From a virus (taxonomy: Duplodnaviria > Heunggongvirae > Uroviricota > Caudoviricetes): DNA of 8,890 bases. Location of the stretch: IMG/VR virus record IMGVR_UViG_2695420585_000008. One strand, 5' to 3'. The first letter of the stretch is position 1; every line of letters begins with the position of its first letter. Shown one piece after another: positions 1 through 8,890 of the stretch. Below the pieces are notes generated by a model. It was not told where the DNA came from, searched no databases, and saw nothing but the letters and a program-made list of their open reading frames with translations. The position numbers and the translations under genes are program-made.

Positions 1-50
1 TGATGGACATTATTTTTGTAGAGCCGGAGGAAACAGACCAGACGGTTTAA
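1..50 (+). CDS. 3' end of an upstream gene entering from the left of the window (probably a head or head-tail connector gene); product not identifiable
   Basis: Frame open from the window edge, last codons read ...MDIIFVEPEETDQTV, stop TAA at 48-50. Only about 16 codons are visible, so no family can be assigned. Confidence 0.3.
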   Translation, partial: MDIIFVEPEETDQTV

Positions 51-90
51 ATGAGCCGGTTACGCAATATCTGCAGGTCGTCTGACACAG

Positions 91-411
91 ATGATAAGTG
101 TTCTGAAGCCGGTGTTAACCCGTAATGCTGCCGGAGAAATGACGGAAGAATGGGTGTCATGCGGGAAAATTCATGCGGATATCCGTGGCAGGAGCAGCCG
201 GGAGCGGATGCAGTCCGGTGCGGAAATGGCGCAGGCGGAAATCCGCATCTGGGTGCGCGGTCAGTCCGGCCGGGAAATCACGGCAGCGTCACGACTTCAT
301 GTGCTGAGTGGTCCATGGCGTGACCGGATCCTGAACGTTGTCGGGCTGCCCGTGCCGGATGCGACCGGCGGGCGTCTGGAAATTCTCTGTCGGCTGGGAG
401 GGGAAAAATGA
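91..411 (+). CDS. Small head-tail joining protein (head closure / head-tail adaptor type), 106 aa
   Basis: ATG at 91, stop TGA 409-411 overlapping the next start (ATGA). Size, basic composition and position just upstream of the tail genes fit the head-tail adaptor class of HK97/SPP1-like phages. The Shine-Dalgarno upstream is weak. Family assignment is from recall, not a search. Confidence 0.55.
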   Translation: MISVLKPVLTRNAAGEMTEEWVSCGKIHADIRGRSSRERMQSGAEMAQAEIRIWVRGQSGREITAASRLHVLSGPWRDRILNVVGLPVPDATGGRLEILCRLGGEK

Positions 412-854
412 TCGAAACCCTGCTGGATTTTTCGGGGCTGGAGGACATCAGCCGCGATTTGCAGCTTCTGAGTGGTGCGGAAAATAACCGGGTGCTGCGT
501 GAGGCAACCCGTGCGGGTGCGAATGTGCTGAAAGAAGAAGTGGTGTCACGGGCACCGGTACGCAGGGGAAAACTGCGCCGCAATGTGGTGGTCCTTTCCC
601 GGCGCTCCCGCGATGGCGGGATGGAATCCGGTGTGCATATCCGGGGTGTTAATCCGGACACCGGTAACAGCGATAACACCATGAAGGCGGATAACCCGCG
701 CAATGCTTTCTACTGGCGGTTTGTGGAAATGGGGACCGTGAATATGCCACCGCACCCGTTTGTGCGCCCGGCATTTGATGTGCGCAGTGAACAGGCGGCA
801 CAGGTGGCGATTGCGCGGATGAACCGGGCCATTGATGAGGTACTGAGACGATGA
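408..854 (+). CDS. HK97 gp10-like neck/tail-component protein, 148 aa
   Basis: ATG 408 overlaps the upstream stop (ATGA coupling), preceded by GGGAGGGG at 396-403. Stop TGA 852-854 overlaps the next start. Position and size match the gp10-like gene that follows the adaptor in HK97-type head-tail modules. Confidence 0.55.
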   Translation: MIETLLDFSGLEDISRDLQLLSGAENNRVLREATRAGANVLKEEVVSRAPVRRGKLRRNVVVLSRRSRDGGMESGVHIRGVNPDTGNSDNTMKADNPRNAFYWRFVEMGTVNMPPHPFVRPAFDVRSEQAAQVAIARMNRAIDEVLRR

Positions 855-1195
855 CGGAGGCGGATTTGTATCCTCATCTGGCGCATCTTGCCGGCGGGCA
901 GGTGTACCCGTATGTGGTCCCCCTGCTGGATGGCAGGCCGTCGGTGGCGCTTCCGTGGGTGGTTTTCAGCCTGATTTCATCGGTGTCTGCGGACGTGATG
1001 GGCGGGCAGGCGGAGTCCTCAGTGTCGGTGCAGATCGACGTTTATGCCGGGACTGTGACGCAGGCGCGTCAGATACGTCAGGACGCCCGTGAAGCCATAA
1101 TGCTGCTGGCCCCGGGATCCGTCAGTGAAATGCAGGACTATATTCCGGAAAACCGCTGTTACCGTGCAACCCTGGAGTTTCAGGTCACGGTGTGA
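851..1195 (+). CDS. Tail terminator / tail completion protein (DUF3168-like, functional analogue of lambda U), 114 aa
   Basis: ATG 851 in an ATGA overlap with the upstream stop, GAGG at 837-840, stop TGA 1193-1195. It is the last small gene before the major tail protein, which is the conserved position of the tail terminator. Confidence 0.5.
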   Translation: MTEADLYPHLAHLAGGQVYPYVVPLLDGRPSVALPWVVFSLISSVSADVMGGQAESSVSVQIDVYAGTVTQARQIRQDAREAIMLLAPGSVSEMQDYIPENRCYRATLEFQVTV

Positions 1196-1213
1196 CTTTT
1201 TCTTTTTTTCTAC

Positions 1214-1246
1214 AAAACCCATACCCCGCCGCGTGCGGGTTTTTTA
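1214..1246 (+). terminator. Terminator-like GC hairpin flanked by an A-tract and a T-tract, between the tail terminator gene and the major tail protein gene
   Basis: CCCGC (1225-1229) pairs with GCGGG (1235-1239) around a 5-nt loop, followed by T6 at 1240-1245. Alternatively AAAACCC (1214-1220) pairs with GGGTTTT (1237-1243). AGGAGG at 1252-1257 for the next gene follows immediately. Confidence 0.4.
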
Positions 1247-1261
1247 TTATCAGGAGGCAGA

Positions 1262-1978
1262 ATGTCTGCTTTGTATGAACGCTCACAGCTGACGCAGGTG
1301 ATGATTTCATCTGCCCCGGCGACTGCTGAAACTATGGATAAGGCGGAATATCTGCGCCTGGACTGCACCATCAAGGAAGTCCAGTTCACCGCCGGTCAGA
1401 AACAGGATATTGATGTGACCACGCTCTGCTCCACAGAGCAGGAGAACATCAACGGTCTGGGGGCGTCGTCTGAGATTTCCATGTCGGGTAATTTTTATCT
1501 GAATCAGGCCCAGAACGCCCTGCGTGATGCCTATGACAATGACGCGTTGTATGCGTTTAAGGTGCTGTTTCCGTCCGGTAAGGGCTTTAAGTTCCTGGCG
1601 GAAGTGCGTCAGCACACCTGGTCATCCGGTACCAACGGCGTGGTGGCAGCAACGTTTTCACTGCGTATGAAAGGCAAACCGGTGTCCTTTGTGGTACCGC
1701 TGGCGTTTGTGAAAAATCTGGATAAAACACTTACCGTGAATACAGGTGCGCTGCTGACAATGTCAGTCAGTGCCAACGGGGGAACGCCGCCGTATAAATA
1801 CGCCTGGAAGAAGGATGGTCAGCCGGTTGACGGGCAGACGACAGACACCTTCAGTAAGCCAGGTGCGCAGTCCGCTGATGCGGGGAAATATACCTGCGTG
1901 GTGACCGATTCGGCAGAGAAAGCACAGAGTGTGACGTCTGTTGAATGCACCGTGACAGTGAGCGCAGCCGCCGGATAA
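1262..1978 (+). CDS. Major tail (tube) protein with a C-terminal Ig-like domain, 238 aa
   Basis: Strong SD AGGAGG at 1252-1257 with 4-nt spacing to ATG 1262, stop TAA 1976-1978. Sits in the conserved position between tail terminator and chaperone. The C-terminal ~90 aa carry Ig-fold hallmarks (PPYKYAWKKDG ... GKYTCVVTD), as in lambda V and other decorated tail tubes. The N-terminal tube domain is not obviously lambda-V-like. Confidence 0.8.
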   Translation: MSALYERSQLTQVMISSAPATAETMDKAEYLRLDCTIKEVQFTAGQKQDIDVTTLCSTEQENINGLGASSEISMSGNFYLNQAQNALRDAYDNDALYAFKVLFPSGKGFKFLAEVRQHTWSSGTNGVVAATFSLRMKGKPVSFVVPLAFVKNLDKTLTVNTGALLTMSVSANGGTPPYKYAWKKDGQPVDGQTTDTFSKPGAQSADAGKYTCVVTDSAEKAQSVTSVECTVTVSAAAG

Positions 1979-1992
1979 GGGGATGGGTCATC

Positions 1993-2367
1993 ATGAAAAA
2001 GGATCTGAAAACGCTGGCGCTGGCCAGACTGTCAGGGTTTCGTCATAAAACGGTGAAGGTGCCGGAATGGGGTAATGTCAGCGTGGTGCTGCGGGAGCCT
2101 TCGGCAGAGGCCTGGTATCTGTGGCAGGAAGTGCTCAATGGTGATGGAGAGGATGACGATACCCTGTCGGTGGTGGCGAAAACCCGCCGTAACCTGGAAG
2201 CGGATGTGACGCTGTTCTGCGATGTCCTGTGTGATACTGACCTGCAACGGGTGTTCACTCCGGACGACCGTGAGCAGGTGCTGGCCGTCTATGGTCCGGT
2301 ACATGCCCGGTTGCTGCGTCAGGCACTGGAACTGATCGCTGATGCAGAGTCGGCCAGAAAAAAGTAG
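1993..2367 (+). CDS. Tail assembly chaperone (lambda G analogue), 124 aa, terminating just after a slippery heptamer
   Basis: ATG 1993 with SD AAGGGGA at 1977-1983. Acidic small protein directly upstream of the tape measure gene. The reading frame ends AGA AAA AAG TAG (stop 2365-2367). Confidence 0.75.
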   Translation: MKKDLKTLALARLSGFRHKTVKVPEWGNVSVVLREPSAEAWYLWQEVLNGDGEDDDTLSVVAKTRRNLEADVTLFCDVLCDTDLQRVFTPDDREQVLAVYGPVHARLLRQALELIADAESARKK

Positions 2368-2672
2368 CCCGCCCGGAAATTCGCTTTCTGATGCGACTTG
2401 CGCTCCGTCTGGGGCGCACCTTATCCGAACTGCGGCACAGCCTGAGTGCGAGCGAGGCGATGATGTGGATGGAGTTTGACAGGGTGTCCCCGCTGGGTGA
2501 TGAGCGCGGGGATATCCGTAATGCACAGATCGTGAAAGCGGTTTTCGGGGCACAGGGGATGAATGTTGCACTGAAGGACGCCATGCTCTGCTGGGGCGAG
2601 GATGAGGATAAGCCGGAGGTGGATCCGTTTGCGGCGCTGGAAGACGCGCTGAGCTTTGCAGCACAGTCATGA
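1993..2672 (+). CDS. G-T-type tail assembly chaperone fusion produced by -1 frameshifting at 2358-2364 (about 226 aa)
   Basis: The downstream ORF (tracked as 2391..2672) lies in the -1 frame relative to G, has no SD of its own, and its frame is open back to 2343, overlapping the slippery site. This is the conserved arrangement upstream of tape measure genes in long-tailed phages. Confidence 0.7.
2358..2364 (+). other. Programmed -1 ribosomal frameshift slippery heptamer A AAA AAG
   Basis: A AAA AAG occupies 2358-2364 in the G frame, directly before the TAG stop. The -1 frame is open from 2343 through to the stop at 2670-2672, so a -1 slip reads AAA AAA GTA GCC ... into the T-like ORF. Confidence 0.7.
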
Positions 2673-2680
2673 ATGATGAG

Positions 2681-2701
2681 AACCGCTGAGGCGGTTTTTT
2701 T
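2681..2701 (+). terminator. Terminator-like hairpin with T-run between the G-T stop and the tape measure start
   Basis: AACCGC (2681-2686) pairs with GCGGTT (2691-2696) around the loop TGAG, followed by a T7 run (2695-2701). The H-like gene's SD (GGAG at 2708-2711, AAAGGTG) follows. Confidence 0.45.
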
Positions 2702-2719
2702 ACGCCCGGAGAAAGGTGA

Positions 2720-5700
2720 ATGGCGACGTTACGTGAACTGATTATCAAAATTTCGGCAAATTCACAGTCATTCCAGTCGGAGATCCAGCGAGCGTCCCGT
2801 ATGGGCAGTGAATATTACCGGACCCTGCAGAATGGCGGGCGTCAGGCCGCTGCGGCAGCCCGGGAGCAGCGACGTGCCCTGGCAGAACTGAACAGCCAGT
2901 TGACGGAAATCCGCGCTTCGGCTGTCGGAATGACCGGTGCGTTTGCCGGTGCCTTTGCCACCGGACACCTGATTTCACTGGCGGATGAGTGGAGTTCCGT
3001 GAATGCCCGTCTGAAACAGGCATCACAGTCATCCGATGAATTTTCGTCATCACAGAAAGTGCTGATGGATATCAGTCAGCGGACAGGTACCGCTTTTTCG
3101 GATAATGCGGCCCTGTTTGCCCGTTCGGCAGCCTCGATGCGTGAATATGGTTACAGTGCTGATGATGTGCTGAAGGTGACGGAGGCCATTTCCACGGGGC
3201 TGAAAATCTCCGGTGCCAGTACGGCTGAGGCGGGTTCGGTGATCACCCAGTTCAGCCAGGCGCTGGCACAGGGTGTGTTGCGCGGTGAGGAATTTAATTC
3301 GGTCAATGAAAGTGGTGACCGGATCATTCGTGCACTGGCTGCAGGCATGGGCGTGGCCCGTAAAGATCTGAAGGCGATGGCGGACGATGGTCAACTGACG
3401 GCGGATAAAGTCGTTCCTGCGTTAATCAGCCAGCTGGAGGTATTGCGTGATGAATACGCGGCCATGCCGGAAACGGTCTCTGACGGGATCACAAAGGTGG
3501 AAAACGCCTTTATGGCCTGGGTGGGTGGTGCGAATGAGGCCAGCGGGGTGACAAAAACGCTCTCCGGCGTGCTGAACGGTGTTGCCGGTAATATTGATAA
3601 TGTGGCAACAGCCGCGGGGGCGCTGGTTGCCGTCGGGGTTGCCCGGTACTTTGGCAATATGGCCTCCGGAGCGGTGTCTGCCACGGCAGGACTTGTGACG
3701 GCTGCACGTAATGAAGTTGCACTGGCGGAAGCACAGTTCAGGGGAACGCAGATTGCCACGGCGCGGGCAAGGGCAGCCGTGTACCGTGCTCAGCAGGCCG
3801 TGGCGGCAGCCCGCGGGACGGAGATGCAGATTGCAGCAGAGGCCCGTCTGGCGGCCACACAGGAACGCCTGAACAGAAATATTGCTGCCAGAAGCGCCGC
3901 CCAGAATGCGCTGAACAGTACAACGGCGGTGGGCTCACGTCTGATGAGCGGTGCGCTGGGGCTGGTTGGTGGCGTACCCGGACTGGTGATGCTGGGGGCT
4001 GCAGCATGGTACACGCTGTACCAGAATCAGGAGCAGGCCAGGGAGTCTGCGCGCCAGTATGCACTGACGATAGATGAAATCGCGCATAAAACGCCGTCAA
4101 TGTCTCTGCCTGAAGCCTCAGATAATGAAGGACGAACACGGGCGGCGCTGACAGAGCAGAACCGGCTGATTGATGAACAGGCCAGTCGGGTGAAATCCCT
4201 GCAGGAAAAAATCGCAGGATATCAGTATGTTCTGGCGAACCCGGGCTGGACGACCGGTGACGGATTCATGATAAACCATCTGACATCGGTGAAGACCGTA
4301 ACGGAAGGGCTTGCTCAGGCAACAGAGCAGCTTGCCGTTGAGCAGTCCCGTCTGGCACAGATGCAGGAAAAAGCGCAGTCCATTCAGGATGTGCTTGCCG
4401 GGCTGGAAGACCGTCGTGTGGCGTTAATTCGTCAGCAGGCGGCAGAGCAGAATAAGGTGTACCAGTCCATGCTGGTTATGAACGGTCAGCATACGGAATT
4501 CAACCGTCTGCTGGGGCTGGGTAATGAACTGCTTCAGCAGCGGCAGGGACTGGTGAATGTGCCGTTACGGCTGCCACAGGCCACTCTGGATGATAAACAG
4601 CAGAGTGCCCTGACAAAAACAGAGCGTGAGCTGGCCCTGTCCAGACTGAAAGGGGAAGAAAAAGAGCGTGCCCGGCTGGGGTATGCGGCGGATGACCTTG
4701 GTTTTGTGGGGGATTCGTATCAGGAGGCGAGACAGCGTTATATCAGTAATGCTCCGGAAGCCTGGCGTAATAACGAGGCGAACAAACCTAAATCCCGGGG
4801 TGGAAAATCAGAGACGGAAAAAGCGGAAGACAGTTTTTCCCGGCTACTGAAGCAGCAGAAAGAGCAACTGGCACTGGCGGGTCAGAATACAGAGCTGGCG
4901 AAGCTGAAGTACCAGACTGCGCAGGGCGAACTGAAAACCCTGACGGAGATGCAGAAGCAGGAACTGCTGCGTAACGCGGCCCTGATTGACCAGCAAAAAA
5001 TCCGGGAACAGTTGCGATCCCGGGAAGAGACCCTGAAGAATGATAATGTGGCTGCGCGTGCATCAAATGAAGCCGAACTGCTGGGATACGGGCAGGGAGA
5101 ACGAGCCAGGGAACGCATGCGGGAGTTGCAGCAGATCCGCGACAGCTTCCGCCAGAAGGATGCGGACCTTCAGTCTCAGTATCAGACCGGGGATATCAGT
5201 GAGGATTTTTACAGACAGGCACGGGCACAGAACGCGCAGTATCTGAGCGAACGCCTTAAGGACCAGGCAGCCTTTTATGCCGAATCGGATGCGCAGCGTG
5301 CGGACTGGCAGAAAGGCTTGCAGGAGGGGCTCAGTAACTGGTTGGATAATGCGTCCGATTACGCCTCACAGGCAGCACAGCTTGCGACGGAGGGTATCTC
5401 AGGGATGGTGAATAACATCACGGAGATGCTGAACGGAAATAAAGTGGAATGGCGCAGCTGGGCCTCATCAGTGCTGCAGGAAATATCAAAAGTTCTTATG
5501 AATGCCGCGATTGTCAACGGAATTAAGACGGCGGCAAACGGTATGTCCGGTGCGGGAGGATTTCTCGGCAGCATTGGTGACTGGCTGGGCGGGGCGGTGG
5601 CCAATGCAAAAGGCGGCGTGTATACCTCGGCAAACCTGAGTGCGTACAGCAACAGTATTGTGGATACGCCCACGTACTTTGCCTTTGCAAAAGGGGCCGG

Positions 5701-5962
5701 GCTGATGGGGGAGGCCGGACCTGAAGCCATTATGCCCCTGACGCGGGCGGCGGATGGCTCGCTGGGTGTGCGCGCGGTGGGTAGTATGTACGGCAGTGCG
5801 GGCCTGGTGTATTCCCCGGTCTACCATATCGCCATTCAGAATGACGGGACTAATGGCCAGATAGGGCCGGAGGCGGCAGGCAGTCTTGTGCAGCTGATTG
5901 ACCAGCGGGTGCAGGCGGTGATGCTGTCCATGCGACGTGACGGAGGAATGCTGAGTGGCTGA
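2720..5962 (+). CDS. H: Tail tape measure protein, 1080 aa
   Basis: ATG 2720, stop TGA 5960-5962. Very long Ala/Gln/Arg/Glu-rich protein with extended coiled-coil-like segments, internal hydrophobic Gly/Ala-rich stretches (GALVAVGVARYFGNMASGAVSATAGLVTAA, LMSGALGLVGGVPGLVMLGAAAWYTLY) and a Gly-rich C-terminal region. It sits between the G-T chaperone and the M-L-K-I block. Confidence 0.95.
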   Translation: MATLRELIIKISANSQSFQSEIQRASRMGSEYYRTLQNGGRQAAAAAREQRRALAELNSQLTEIRASAVGMTGAFAGAFATGHLISLADEWSSVNARLKQASQSSDEFSSSQKVLMDISQRTGTAFSDNAALFARSAASMREYGYSADDVLKVTEAISTGLKISGASTAEAGSVITQFSQALAQGVLRGEEFNSVNESGDRIIRALAAGMGVARKDLKAMADDGQLTADKVVPALISQLEVLRDEYAAMPETVSDGITKVENAFMAWVGGANEASGVTKTLSGVLNGVAGNIDNVATAAGALVAVGVARYFGNMASGAVSATAGLVTAARNEVALAEAQFRGTQIATARARAAVYRAQQAVAAARGTEMQIAAEARLAATQERLNRNIAARSAAQNALNSTTAVGSRLMSGALGLVGGVPGLVMLGAAAWYTLYQNQEQARESARQYALTIDEIAHKTPSMSLPEASDNEGRTRAALTEQNRLIDEQASRVKSLQEKIAGYQYVLANPGWTTGDGFMINHLTSVKTVTEGLAQATEQLAVEQSRLAQMQEKAQSIQDVLAGLEDRRVALIRQQAAEQNKVYQSMLVMNGQHTEFNRLLGLGNELLQQRQGLVNVPLRLPQATLDDKQQSALTKTERELALSRLKGEEKERARLGYAADDLGFVGDSYQEARQRYISNAPEAWRNNEANKPKSRGGKSETEKAEDSFSRLLKQQKEQLALAGQNTELAKLKYQTAQGELKTLTEMQKQELLRNAALIDQQKIREQLRSREETLKNDNVAARASNEAELLGYGQGERARERMRELQQIRDSFRQKDADLQSQYQTGDISEDFYRQARAQNAQYLSERLKDQAAFYAESDAQRADWQKGLQEGLSNWLDNASDYASQAAQLATEGISGMVNNITEMLNGNKVEWRSWASSVLQEISKVLMNAAIVNGIKTAANGMSGAGGFLGSIGDWLGGAVANAKGGVYTSANLSAYSNSIVDTPTYFAFAKGAGLMGEAGPEAIMPLTRAADGSLGVRAVGSMYGSAGLVYSPVYHIAIQNDGTNGQIGPEAAGSLVQLIDQRVQAVMLSMRRDGGMLSG

Positions 5963-6296
5963 GATAAAAACGCTGCATCTGGTCCCGCGTGAAGGGATGC
6001 AGGTGAGTGAGAAGCCGTCGGTGGTGAGGGTGCGGTTTGGTGACGGTTATGAACAGCGCCGCCCCACAGGGCTGAATCCTCAACTGAAGACGTTTCAGGC
6101 GGTGTTCCGGGTGACGGATGAGTCAACCCGGCGCTGGCTGGAAGAGTTTTTATCGTGGCATGGTGGTTACCGTGCCTTTTTGTGGCGACCGCCGAAACAT
6201 AACCGGACGGTGAGGGTTGTGTGCCGTGAGTGGAGTGTCACGGATAATGCCCGGTACAGTGATTTCAGTTGCACGATAGAGCAGGTGGTGAACTGA
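5955..6296 (+). CDS. M: Minor tail protein M (distal tail protein), 113 aa
   Basis: GTG start at 5955 with SD GGAGG at 5943-5947, overlapping the tape measure stop by 8 nt. Stop TGA 6294-6296. Shares the motifs VRFGDGY, HGG...FLW.PP and C-terminal EQVVN with lambda gpM as I recall it. Confidence 0.88.
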   Translation: MAEIKTLHLVPREGMQVSEKPSVVRVRFGDGYEQRRPTGLNPQLKTFQAVFRVTDESTRRWLEEFLSWHGGYRAFLWRPPKHNRTVRVVCREWSVTDNARYSDFSCTIEQVVN

Positions 6297-6994
6297 TGCA
6301 GGATATTCACGAAGAAAGCCTGAACGAGTCGGTTAAGTCAGAGCAGTCACCGCGTGTGGTACTCTGGGAAATCGACCTGACGGTGCAGGGCGGTGAGCGC
6401 TATTTTTTCTGCAATGAACTGAATGAAAAAGGGGAGCCGGTCACCTGGCAGGGGCGTGAATATCAGGCGTACCCGATTGACGGCAGCGGCTTTGAGATGA
6501 ACGGGAAGGGCAGCAGTGCCAGACCGTCGCTGACGGTGTCCAATCTGTTTGGCCTTGTCACCGGAATGGCGGAGGACCTGCAGAGCCTGGTGGGGGCCAC
6601 GGTGGTCCGCCGCCGGGTGTATGCCCGTTTTCTGGATGCGGTGAATTTTGTGGCGGGCAATCCGGAAGCGGACCCGGAGCAGGAGCTGAGCGACCGCTGG
6701 GTGGTGGAGCAGATGTCAGAGCTGACGGCCATGACAGCCTCGTTTGTGCTGGCAACACCGACGGAGACGGACGGAGCGCTGTTTCCCGGTCGCATTATGC
6801 TGGCGAATACCTGTATGTGGGATTACCGGGGAGATGAATGCGGGTATAACGGTCCTGCGGTGGCGGATGAGTTCGACAACCCCACCACGGATATCCGTAA
6901 GGACAGATGCAGCAAGTGCATGCGCGGGTGTGAGATGCGCGGCATGGTGGCTAATTTTGGCGGTTTCCTTTCCATCAATAAACTTTCGCAGTAA
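6296..6994 (+). CDS. L: Minor tail protein L (tail tip protein with C-terminal Cys cluster), 232 aa
   Basis: ATG 6296 overlaps the M stop (TGATG). Stop TAA 6992-6994. Extensive similarity to lambda gpL as recalled (VVLWEIDLT..GGERYFFCNE.NEKGEPVTWQGR.YQ.YPI.GSGFE ... FPGRIMLANTC.W.YRGDECGY.GPAVADE ... FGGFLSINKLSQ). The six-frame ORF beginning at 6269 is an upstream in-frame extension; the lambda-like N-terminus MQDI begins at 6296. Confidence 0.92.
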   Translation: MQDIHEESLNESVKSEQSPRVVLWEIDLTVQGGERYFFCNELNEKGEPVTWQGREYQAYPIDGSGFEMNGKGSSARPSLTVSNLFGLVTGMAEDLQSLVGATVVRRRVYARFLDAVNFVAGNPEADPEQELSDRWVVEQMSELTAMTASFVLATPTETDGALFPGRIMLANTCMWDYRGDECGYNGPAVADEFDNPTTDIRKDRCSKCMRGCEMRGMVANFGGFLSINKLSQ

Positions 6995-7188
6995 ATCCTG
7001 TTTTATGACACAGACTGAATCAGCGATTCTGGCGCATGCCCGGCGGTGTGCGCCTGCGGAGTCGTGCGGCTTCGTGGTGAGAACGCCGGAGGGGGAGCGG
7101 TATATCCCTTGTGTGAATATCTCTGCAGAGCCGGAGGCGTATTTTCGTATTGCACCGGAAGACTGGCTGCGGGCAGAGATGCAGGGGG
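6809..7188 (+). repeat. Direct repeat, copy 1 (3' end of L plus 5' part of K)
   Basis: Aligns without indels to 8511-8890 at a constant offset of 1702 bp. I counted about 20 mismatches in 380 bp by eye. Similarity stops abruptly upstream of 6809 versus 8511. Confidence 0.9.
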
Positions 7189-7748
7189 AGATTGTGGCAC
7201 CGGTCCACAGTCATCCCGGTGGTCTGCCCTGGCTGAGCGAGGCCGACCGGCGGCTGCAGATAAAAAGTGCACTGTCCTGGTGGCTGGTCTGCCGGGGGGA
7301 CATTCATAAATTCCGCTGTGTGCCACATCTGACAGGACGGCGCTTTGAGCACGGGGGGACGGACTGTTACACGCTGTTCCGGGATGCCTACCATCTGGCG
7401 GGAATTGATATGCCGGATTTTGAGCGTGAGGATGACTGGTGGCGTAACGGTCAGAACCTTTACCTGGACAATATGGCGGTCACCGGCTTTTACCGGGTGC
7501 CCCTGTCCTCTGCACAGGCGGGCGATATCCTGCTGTGCTGCTTTGGCGCATCGGTGGCCAATCATGCCGCCATATACTGCGGCAACGGTGAGCTGCTTCA
7601 CCATCTGCCTGAACAACTGAGTAAACGGGAGAGGTATTCCGAAAAATGGCAACGACGAACGCATTCAGCCTGGCGTCACCGCCACTGGCACGCATCTGCC
7701 TTCACGGGGATTTGCAACGATTTGGCCGCCGCCTCAGCCTGTATGTGA
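7005..7748 (+). CDS. K: Tail assembly protein K, two-domain (N-terminal JAB/MPN-type metalloprotease motif plus C-terminal NlpC/P60-type cysteine peptidase), 247 aa
   Basis: ATG 7005 lies 10 nt after the L stop, with no strong SD. Stop TGA 7746-7748. Contains a JAMM-like motif HSHPGGLPWLSEAD (H-x-H-x7-S-x2-D) and NlpC/P60-like Cys/His motifs (GTDCYTLFRDAYH, NHAAIYCG). Strong similarity to lambda K. The listed ORF from 6744 is an in-frame extension inside L. Confidence 0.9.
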   Translation: MTQTESAILAHARRCAPAESCGFVVRTPEGERYIPCVNISAEPEAYFRIAPEDWLRAEMQGEIVAPVHSHPGGLPWLSEADRRLQIKSALSWWLVCRGDIHKFRCVPHLTGRRFEHGGTDCYTLFRDAYHLAGIDMPDFEREDDWWRNGQNLYLDNMAVTGFYRVPLSSAQAGDILLCCFGASVANHAAIYCGNGELLHHLPEQLSKRERYSEKWQRRTHSAWRHRHWHASAFTGICNDLAAASACM

Positions 7749-8326
7749 ACACGGCAGCGGAAGCCATTCGCGCCCTGTCGATGCAGATGCCGGGCTTTCG
7801 CCGTCAGATGAACGAAGGCTGGTACCAGATACGTATTCGCGGTGAGGACACGGCACCGGAGGCGGTGTACGCCCGTCTTCACGAACAGCTGGGTGAGGGG
7901 GCGGTCATCCATATTGTGCCGCGACTGGCCGGGGCCGGAAAGGGTGGACTGCAGATTGTGCTGGGGGCGGCAGCCATCGTGGGCTCTTTCTTCACTGCCG
8001 GGGCATCAATGGCGTTATGGGGTTCAGCCCTGGCAGCCGGTGGTTTTTCTGCCACCACGATGCTGTTTTCACTGGGGGCCAGCATGATACTGGGTGGTGT
8101 GGCACAGATGCTTGCCCCGAAGCCAAAAACACCGGAATACAGGGCAACGGATAACGGCAGACAGAACACGTACTTTTCCTCGCTGGATAACATGATTGCC
8201 CAGGGGAACCCGATGCCGGTGCCTTACGGTGAAATGCTGGTTGGCTCCCGGCGAATCTCCCAGGACATCAGTACCCGTGATGAAGGCGGTGACGGGAAGA
8301 TGGTGGTTATCGGGCGGCAGGCATAA
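7646..8326 (+). CDS. I: Tail assembly protein I, 226 aa
   Basis: ATG 7646 with GGGAGAGG upstream, overlapping the 3' end of K by 103 nt in a different frame, as in lambda. Stop TAA 8324-8326. Similarity to lambda gpI (ARICL.GDLQRFGRR, GAVIHIVPR, FSLGASM.LGGVAQMLAPK, QNTYFSSLDNM.AQGN, YGEM.VGSR). Confidence 0.9.
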   Translation: MATTNAFSLASPPLARICLHGDLQRFGRRLSLYVNTAAEAIRALSMQMPGFRRQMNEGWYQIRIRGEDTAPEAVYARLHEQLGEGAVIHIVPRLAGAGKGGLQIVLGAAAIVGSFFTAGASMALWGSALAAGGFSATTMLFSLGASMILGGVAQMLAPKPKTPEYRATDNGRQNTYFSSLDNMIAQGNPMPVPYGEMLVGSRRISQDISTRDEGGDGKMVVIGRQA

Positions 8327-8337
8327 AAGCGAAAAAA

Positions 8338-8370
8338 TCCCGCAGTGCTCACGGACAGGAACTGCGGGAG
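8338..8370 (-). terminator. Intrinsic terminator oriented for minus-strand transcription
   Basis: CCCGCAGT (8339-8346) pairs with ACTGCGGG (8361-8368), an 8-9 bp stem with a 14-nt loop. On the plus strand the stem is preceded by A6 (8332-8337) and not followed by a T-run, so the U-tract follows the stem only on the minus strand. Confidence 0.5.
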
Positions 8371-8510
8371 CGTTACGAAGATTGAGTGTAAGGAATTATT
8401 CTTATGTCACGACAAAAAACATTAACGCAGAGAAATTATTAGCGCCACAGTCAGTTTGTGAAAATGTGAAGATATTCAGAATTTTTATTCAGTCATGATA
8501 CAGGCATCCA

Positions 8511-8696
8511 ACCTGTATGTGGGATTACCGGGGAGATGAATGCGGGTATAACGGTCCTGCGGTGGCGGATGAGTTCGACAACCCCACCACGGATATCCGT
8601 AAGGACAGATGCAGCAAGTGCATGCGTGGGTGTGAACTGCGCAGGAATGTCGGCAATTTTGGCGGTTTCCTTTCCATTAATAAACTTTCGCAGTAA
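8511..8696 (+). pseudogene. 5'-truncated fragment of a second L-type tail tip gene (C-terminal ~61 codons, Cys-cluster region)
   Basis: In frame with the L-homologous reading frame (TCMWDYRGDECGYNGPAVADEFDNPTTDIRKDRCSKCMRGCELRRNVGNFGGFLSINKLSQ, stop TAA 8694-8696). Homology to L begins only at about L codon 172. An in-frame stop sits at 8496-8498 just upstream. There is an internal in-frame ATG at 8517. Confidence 0.65.
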
Positions 8697-8706
8697 ATCC
8701 CGGTTT

Positions 8707-8890
8707 ATGACACAGACTGAATCAGCGATTCTGGCACATGCCCGGCGGTGTGCGCCTGCGGAGTCGTGCGGCTTCGTGATAAGCACGCCGGAGGGGGAGC
8801 GGTATATCCCTTGTGTGAATATTTCCGCAGAGCCGGAGGCGTATTTTCGTATCGCACCGGAAGACTGGCTGCGGGCAGAGATGCAGGGGG
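8707..8890 (+). CDS. K: 5' end of a second K-type tail assembly gene (partial, continues beyond the window)
   Basis: ATG 8707 corresponds exactly to the K start at 7005 plus 1702. Translation MTQTESAILAHARRCAPAESCGFVISTPEGERYIPCVNISAEPEAYFRIAPEDWLRAEMQG is nearly identical to the first K, with no stop before the window edge. Confidence 0.8.
   Translation, partial: MTQTESAILAHARRCAPAESCGFVISTPEGERYIPCVNISAEPEAYFRIAPEDWLRAEMQG

Follow-up and report, generated by a model that had tools for sequence, protein, structure and literature searches.

The 184-bp stretch that follows tail gene I (positions 8327–8510 of the window, i.e., of the whole 8,890-nt stretch of phage DNA that was analysed) is, judging from its sequence, the usual spacer between genes I and J of Shiga-toxin-type E. 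coli prophages, a common and ordinary piece of DNA that carries a gene for a small RNA (sRNA). The minus strand of 8329–8462 very probably constitutes a complete gene for a trans-acting, Hfq-binding sRNA of the PasB/EcOnc22-24 family, arranged as a moron-like unit in antisense orientation between I and J, and the RNA of the window is best read as a distinct allele of this already described family of prophage sRNAs. Expression, Hfq dependence, and partners in trans are attributed to the window allele by analogy with its homologues. Beyond this, the analysis adds a link between PasB and EcOnc22-24, a testable hypothesis of control by CRP, and, where the spacer ends on the right, a rearrangement that is unique among the collections searched; its overall importance is modest.

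The I-J spacer and its predicted leftward gene

The spacer belongs to a lambda-like tail operon in which the tape measure gene (2720–5962), M (5955–6296), L (6296–6994; Pfam Phage_tail_L), K (7005–7748; Prok-JAB plus NlpC/P60), and the tail assembly gene I (7745–8326; Pfam Lambda_tail_I) are all encoded on the plus strand. Gene I ends in a TAA stop codon at 8324–8326 and is 100% identical to a gene annotated in RefSeq as a "tail assembly protein" in record L002. Over positions 64–8509, the window runs collinear, at ~98% identity, with prophages of STEC, including those of O111 and O26 strains.

An earlier note on this DNA had described the stretch as an AT-rich island within a GC-rich operon, non-coding beyond trivial ORFs, and both observations are borne out. 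The GC content of 8327–8510 is 39.7% versus 57.5% for 1–8326, where the lowest value among other 184-nt segments is 46.7%, and the only ORFs touching the stretch are out-of-frame run-ons from I or from a second L/K copy (see below), plus a 26-codon GTG ORF. The note had further proposed that the piece was imported from another context, as a junction scar or a remnant, and this part did not survive comparison with known phages. Positions 8250–8509 match the I-J spacer of Stx1a- and Stx2c-converting phages at 100% identity, and likewise the spacer of E. coli Z1322HEC0003, where J comes next. Since a database match of exactly this kind was what the note itself had set against its proposal, the stretch is to be regarded as ordinary I-J spacer.

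Two pairs of short direct repeats had also been singled out, and both occur where they were reported (TATTCAG at 8473 and 8486; GTGAA at 8458 and 8466). As a feature, they were rejected. A close direct repeat of at least 7 nt arises in 22% of dinucleotide-preserving shuffles, and one copy of each pair differs among alleles, with one GTGAA falling in a variable -35 region, as allele comparison reveals, and the second TATTCAG reading TATTCCG in many alleles; neither pair is conserved as a repeat elsewhere.

The predicted sRNA, as placed by a covariance model (R1, described below) and by alignments, occupies 8428–8329 of the minus strand, and this unit stops 3 nt beyond the stop of I (8326). The predicted +1 is G8428, an approximate position given that the annotated 5′ end of PasB, derived from RNA-seq coverage, lies 15 nt downstream, and the predicted 3′ end falls within the U-tract at ~8332–8334, for an RNA of ~95–100 nt. 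Its intrinsic terminator (8369–8332, minus strand) consists of a stem formed by UCCCGCAGU (8369–8361) and ACUGCGGGA (8346–8338), followed by UUUUUU at 8337–8332. The hairpin proper (8369–8338) has 9 bp and a 14-nt loop and folds on the minus strand at -16.1 kcal/mol (z = -2.4), in agreement with the well-formed hairpin and minus-strand U-tract noticed on first reading. The stem core, CCCGCAG/CUGCGGG, is invariant in 18 sequences, and the loop varies in both sequence and length (10–16 nt). Because the stem never varies, it receives no support from covariation.

The first reading had found no convincing -35 and -10 elements, but the minus strand does carry a predicted sigma-70-type promoter at 8462–8435, recognised by its match to the consensus at 10 of 12 positions: a -35 of TTCACA (8462–8457), a 16-nt spacer, and a -10 of AATAAT (8440–8435). 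At the -10, E2348/69 has TATAAT and the Stx2a type TATCAT, A2 and T6 being constant throughout, and the -35 is variable among alleles. Every allele begins with GCGUUA or, in Sakai, GCAUUA, exactly 7 nt past the -10. Read along the sRNA strand, the locus thus consists of an invariant block of ~37 nt, a freely varying stretch of 24 nt that includes the -35 position, the -10, six bases, GCGUUA, a U-run, a variable body, the invariant stem with its loop, and 6–10 U residues.

Within the variable body, AAYUCC and (U/G)AAUCUUC(A/G)U are retained. The second of these motifs, present in all alleles, is represented in the window by AAUCUUCGU (8376–8384, minus strand); it is predicted to be single-stranded, and its GAAGAT columns are invariant in alignments A2 and A3 and unpaired in RNAalifold. 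Situated just 5′ of the terminator, this motif is likely the core of a seed or of an Hfq-contact region. RNAalifold applied to the A3 alleles returned the terminator as the single consensus element, the body being otherwise unpaired.

The pattern of conservation also bears on whether the spacer might instead encode a small protein, for which the annotation of a 32-codon "hypothetical protein" in the corresponding spacer of phage PhiR12_1 offers a precedent and the 26-codon GTG ORF (8345–8425, plus strand) a candidate. The idea is hardly credible: indels among alleles are not multiples of three, conservation follows no reading frame, the candidate ORF lacks an ATG and a visible ribosome-binding site and is not conserved, and such a protein is annotated in no other record examined.

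Kinship with PasB and EcOnc22-24 and distribution of the element

One of the closest known relatives of the window allele is PasB, a northern-validated, Hfq-dependent RIL-seq hub from prophage PP6 of EPEC E2348/69 (PMC8550237), mapped to NC_011601.1 1466343–1466261 on the minus strand, with a length of 83 nt (Pearl Mizrahi et al. 2021, PMC8550237 Table S6). The RefSeq annotation of NC_011601.1 places the end of gene I at 1466255 and the start of gpJ at 1466496, and PasB therefore ends 6 nt after the I stop. Moreover, window positions 8335–8346 coincide with the first 12 nt of AATCCCGCAGTGATCGCGGAGCT, the probe used for PasB in northern blotting.

A second set of relatives comes from E. coli O157:H7 Sakai, where EcOnc22 (Sp15, the Stx1 prophage), EcOnc23 (Sp14), and EcOnc24 (Sp11) were reported (Tree et al. 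2014, PMC4104026 Table S2), with their targets listed as unknown. EcOnc22 runs at ~85 nt on northern blots, as compared with the 91 nt predicted here for the Sakai allele, and is destabilised in a Δhfq strain (PMC4104026). All three map to Sakai I-J spacers, antisense to the tail genes, and the reverse complement of their shared northern probe falls in the sRNA body just 5′ of the terminator. The three spacers in question (L015, L036, and L037, for Sp15, Sp14, and Sp11, respectively) are identical over all 240 nt. The published peak coordinates (PMC4104026) are offset by ~120 nt from NC_002695.2, which is consistent with a later revision of the Sakai sequence.

Homology was measured by means of a covariance model, R1, built from alignment A3, which holds, on the sRNA strand, eight alleles other than that of the window (PasB, PhiR12_1, Stx2_499, the Stx2a type, Stx1_9793, EcOnc22 from VT1-Sakai, BP-4795, and PPompW). 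With the window allele thus excluded from its construction, R1 produced one match in the window, at 8428..8329 of the minus strand, full length, with 63.9 bits and an E-value of 8e-11. Pairwise identity of the window allele is ~69% to PasB and ~67% to EcOnc22. Slot, antisense strand, homology, terminator, and, by consensus match, promoter position therefore all agree with membership of the family, and the earlier suggestion that the stretch might specify a small leftward transcript has gained considerably, as two experimentally validated sRNAs that share its slot and strand are homologous to it.

The likeness to PasB extends to the placement directly after the I stop in antisense, the same CCCGCAG/CUGCGGG stem and U-tract, the position of the -10 (TATAAT there, AATAAT here), the invariant upstream block, and the AUCUUC motif. 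The two alleles are nevertheless far from identical. Their ~69% identity extends over ~100 nt with a longest exact shared run of ~16 nt, the terminator loop measures 11 nt in PasB and 16 nt in the window allele, and the proposed seed stretch reads GAUCUUCAUUUGUCUGUC in PasB but AAUCUUCGUAACGCU in the window, the AUCUUC core alone being common to both; moreover, the window cassette is not upstream of J. A seed just upstream of the terminator has been proposed for PasB by Zhu, Shabalina and Storz (2026; bioRxiv 10.64898/2026.05.13.724894), who searched bacterial genomes for PasB by BLAST at a word size of 28 (bioRxiv 10.64898/2026.05.13.724894). Given a longest shared run of ~16 nt, the window allele would lie outside their PasB count. 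With EcOnc22-24, the window allele has the I-J spacer, the strand, and the architecture in common, and it differs in being another allele at ~67% identity.

A link between PasB and EcOnc22-24 was not found in PMC8550237, PMC4104026, or Zhu et al. (2026): Table S6 of PMC8550237 lists EHEC homologues of just two RNAs, PasA and PasD, and the term "EcOnc" is absent from the text of Zhu et al. (2026; bioRxiv 10.64898/2026.05.13.724894). Connecting the EPEC sRNA with its EHEC counterparts would join two strands of literature.

AgvB and AsxR (RF02702 and RF02703), two other sRNAs of this general kind, were also considered. Like the window element, they are short Hfq-binding RNAs from moron-like cassettes of EHEC lambdoid prophages, with a conserved 3′ part and a variable target-recognition part. 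Unlike it, they lie downstream of PR′ near stx or lysis genes rather than in the tail operon, measure 51–60 nt, and have no sequence similarity to the window. Identity with either was rejected on the grounds of the PR′ location, the lack of similarity, and the absence of any Rfam match at E ≤1 in 8300–8890.

The element is widespread. A 134-nt query comprising promoter and RNA matched 1830 of 5426 complete E. coli genomes, or approximately one third; identity reaches ≥99% in 118 records, and the element is never annotated. Non-O157 STEC and Stx1a/Stx2c phages commonly carry the window allele. In Rfam 15, no family covers the spacer, as judged by a permissive search of the whole window and by a search of the intact homologous locus at gathering thresholds, and this explains why the element goes unannotated. 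As such, it is prone to being flagged repeatedly as an anomaly in first-pass readings of sequence. Outside E. coli, scanning the GTDB representatives for the terminator plus GAAGAT pattern gave mostly chance matches in unrelated phyla, the real element being confined to two E. albertii contigs and to short contigs labelled Streptomyces and Parendozoicomonas. The last two (L029, 3408 bp, "Streptomyces flavalbus"; L024, 460 bp, "Parendozoicomonas haliclonae") carry the I-J spacer with its invariant block, and they most likely represent assembly contamination.

A variant arrangement occurs in O157:H7 EDL933 (L038, 401–504) and in E. albertii (L034), where a window-type body and terminator at ~98% identity sit directly downstream of a minus-strand sodC and its hairpin, with the promoter and CRP-like block replaced. 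Such a copy represents either a remnant devoid of a promoter or a portion of the 3′ UTR of sodC.

That O157 EDL933 and E. albertii possess promoter-less copies of the same allele, downstream of sodC, is one of three observations by which the segment of the window might be taken as inert, i.e., as a junction scar or decayed moron remnant whose hairpin ends no transcript; the others are its AT-rich, foreign-looking character against the operon and a real rearrangement scar at its right edge. Such inertness is nonetheless very improbable. Promoter, body, and terminator are all intact in the window, the spacer is 100% identical to that of inducible Stx phages, the unit is kept in the 1830 genomes counted above, conservation is patterned (promoter, seed motif, and stem kept, loop and body variable), and two homologues are expressed and Hfq-dependent. 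The term "moron remnant" used for the stretch in the earlier note is accordingly half apt: "moron-like" is fair for a self-contained, promoter-to-terminator cassette within a late operon, and "remnant" does not suit a unit with nothing missing from promoter to terminator.

The CRP-like block and the proposed function

Another conserved component of the locus is the invariant block at ~8463–8499, upstream of the sRNA promoter, which contains the palindrome AAATGTGA-AGATAT-TCAGAATT (8462–8483). The consensus for CRP binding is AAATGTGA-N6-TCACATTT, and the palindrome matches 14 of its 16 specified positions; it is the sole match with two or fewer mismatches in the window, and none of 200 shuffles contains one. 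In every allele with the block, the half-sites of the palindrome are unchanged and the N6 spacer alone varies; the distance from the palindrome to the -10 is fixed, whereas the 24 nt in between, which include the -35 region, vary freely. Fixed spacing combined with a variable -35 would be the pattern expected of an activator-dependent promoter with a weak -35. The centre of the box lies at ~-44.5 from the predicted +1 (8428, itself approximate), as compared with -41.5 for a canonical class II site, an offset that tells against control by CRP.

Transcription of the sRNA may thus be activated by cAMP-CRP through the TGTGA-N6-TCAGA box, a suggestion that derives from sequence comparison. Spf is a CRP-repressed RNA. 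PasB is more abundant in overnight static LB than in exponential DMEM, and Spf exhibits the opposite behaviour, being ~five-fold higher in DMEM; this pattern fits CRP activation of PasB, without amounting to proof. Alternatively, the invariant flanks around a variable cassette could be recombination boundaries and not regulatory DNA. The appeal of the CRP-box hypothesis is that it provides a testable tie between a prophage sRNA and the physiology of its host.

Taken together with what is known of the homologues, these features suggest how the gene would operate. In a lysogen, where the late operon would be silent, the sRNA's own sigma-70 promoter would start transcription at ~G8428, and the hairpin and U-tract at 8369–8332 would stop it three bases before the stop codon of I is reached. 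The predicted product of ~95–100 nt would possess a mostly unstructured body, the AAUCUUC motif 5′ of the terminator, and a 3′ hairpin with U-tail of the Hfq-binding type, and it would pair in trans with host and virulence mRNAs. In the case of PasB, Hfq-dependent RIL-seq chimeras have been recovered with ler, perB, bfpB, bfpI, ftsZ, and galE. Because the body differs between alleles, their targets presumably differ as well, and since the seed stretches share the AUCUUC core alone, the targets of PasB are not transferable to the window allele. RNAduplex calculations with PasB and the window allele against ler, ftsZ, and galE fragments yielded whole-length, loop-ridden, and uninformative duplexes. 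More generally, a multi-allelic locus means that ler, perB, and bfp partners established for one allele cannot simply be carried over to another.

It is also conceivable that the sRNA acts mainly in cis, by pairing with the late I-J mRNA during lytic growth and thereby modulating J or triggering cleavage by RNase III. All alleles have the element antisense to the tail operon, and by its position the whole 100-nt RNA would be complementary to the late transcript. A chiefly cis role is improbable, however, as the RNA (8329–8428) overlaps neither coding sequence, I ending at 8326, nor the ribosome-binding site of J, whose start in intact spacers lies ~130 nt (>120 nt) past the 5′ end of the RNA; PasB, moreover, was recovered on Hfq in chimeras with unlinked mRNAs, and in the window no J follows. 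Action in trans is thus the preferred role for the window sRNA, with which a role in cis could coexist.

A broader and more speculative idea, which we consider possible but somewhat doubtful, is that the I-J cassette functions as a CRP-switched, allele-swapping sRNA locus, in which invariant bookends (the CRP box, the -10, the GCGUUA at +1, the AAUCUUC core, and the terminator stem) frame a body that has diverged to give six or more alleles, each with its own set of targets. If true, co-resident prophages would wire different host and virulence mRNAs to catabolite status, the window allele would have a regulon of its own, and PasB and EcOnc22-24 would form one family.

The right-hand junction and its surroundings

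In its usual setting, the spacer closes on the right with a terminator on the plus strand, after which J comes next. The intact form, ACAGGCAYCC-NNNN-GGRTGCCTGT-TGTTTTT, is found in 12 aligned spacers (at 10692–10725 of L002 and columns ~276–310 of alignment A2), folds at -19.9 kcal/mol (z = -4.35), and exhibits one compensatory pair change, from U-A to C-G (ATCC/GGAT to ACCC/GGGT). Inspection by eye revealed no convincing -35/-10 pair for a plus-strand promoter that might feed it. The window departs from this right-hand context: the left arm of the terminator, ACAGGCATCC (8500–8509, plus strand), is present, its right arm and T-run are missing, and a further copy of L and K (L′-K) follows. 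The breakpoint falls at 8510–8511: homology to the spacer continues to 8509, at which all genome alignments of this region end, 8510 is assigned to neither side, and homology to L begins at 8511. The placement of the stretch between I and J, assumed in the earlier note, does not hold for the window itself, as 8510 is followed by a 3′ fragment of L (8511–8696) and the start of a second K (8707 onwards). The actual scar is the right edge of the interval that the note had delimited, at 8510/8511, and went unrecognised there.

The second, partial L copy (8511–8696, plus strand) comprises the C-terminal 59–61 codons, corresponding to positions 147–206 of the 206 in Pfam Phage_tail_L, and these 186 nt of 3′ end are 94% identical to window positions 6809–6994. 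The second K start (8707–8890, plus strand) encodes the N-terminus of the Prok-JAB domain, is 100% identical to the K start of L002, and runs off the end of the window. Considered as one piece, the second L-K copy (8511–8890) has 94% identity to 6809–7188 of the window, at a spacing of 1702 bp, and 100% identity to the L-K junction of Z1322HEC0003.

The break coincides with the apex of the plus-strand terminator hairpin in the spacer, and the only homology between both sides in its vicinity is the pentamer CCTGT; the new joint folds into a weak 7-bp hairpin. As 48 bp separate the break from the sRNA -35 downstream of it, and the CRP-like box is not reached, the sRNA gene is left intact. Exact searches for the 33-nt junction found it absent from GTDB species representatives, IMG/VR, and JGI metagenomes, and a junction-spanning 161-mer gave no collinear match by BLAST against 5426 complete E. 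coli genomes. Two origins come into consideration: two co-resident lambdoid prophages may have undergone illegitimate recombination, or template switching at the hairpin, or else the junction may be an artefact of assembly or of chimeric reads. We lean slightly towards a real event, since a join at 5 nt of homology is not a typical product of graph assemblers, and the artefact remains as the alternative. In either case, the L-K-I-spacer-L′-K junction has no significance beyond that of a quality flag or of an instance of illegitimate recombination that joins co-resident lambdoid prophages at a hairpin.

Other right flanks have also been seen, in the PPompW and E. albertii copies. In L014 (the PPompW phage), L026 (E. 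albertii), and L029, a different segment takes over after TTTTTATGCC, and the switch marks a sharp mosaic boundary of the sRNA cassette. This PPompW-type flank has a plus-strand hairpin of its own, AACCCCGGTATC-TGCT-GATACCGGGGTT.

Finally, the Rfam searches gave a single match, a sub-threshold, isrK-like one farther upstream in the operon, at 2634–2701 of the plus strand (27.1 bits, as compared with a gathering score of 50; E = 0.011). A terminator-like hairpin on the plus strand, AACCGCUGAGGCGGUUUUUUU, closes this stretch shortly before the tape measure gene starts at 2720, and the stretch may represent a second small-RNA-like or terminator element of the tail operon.
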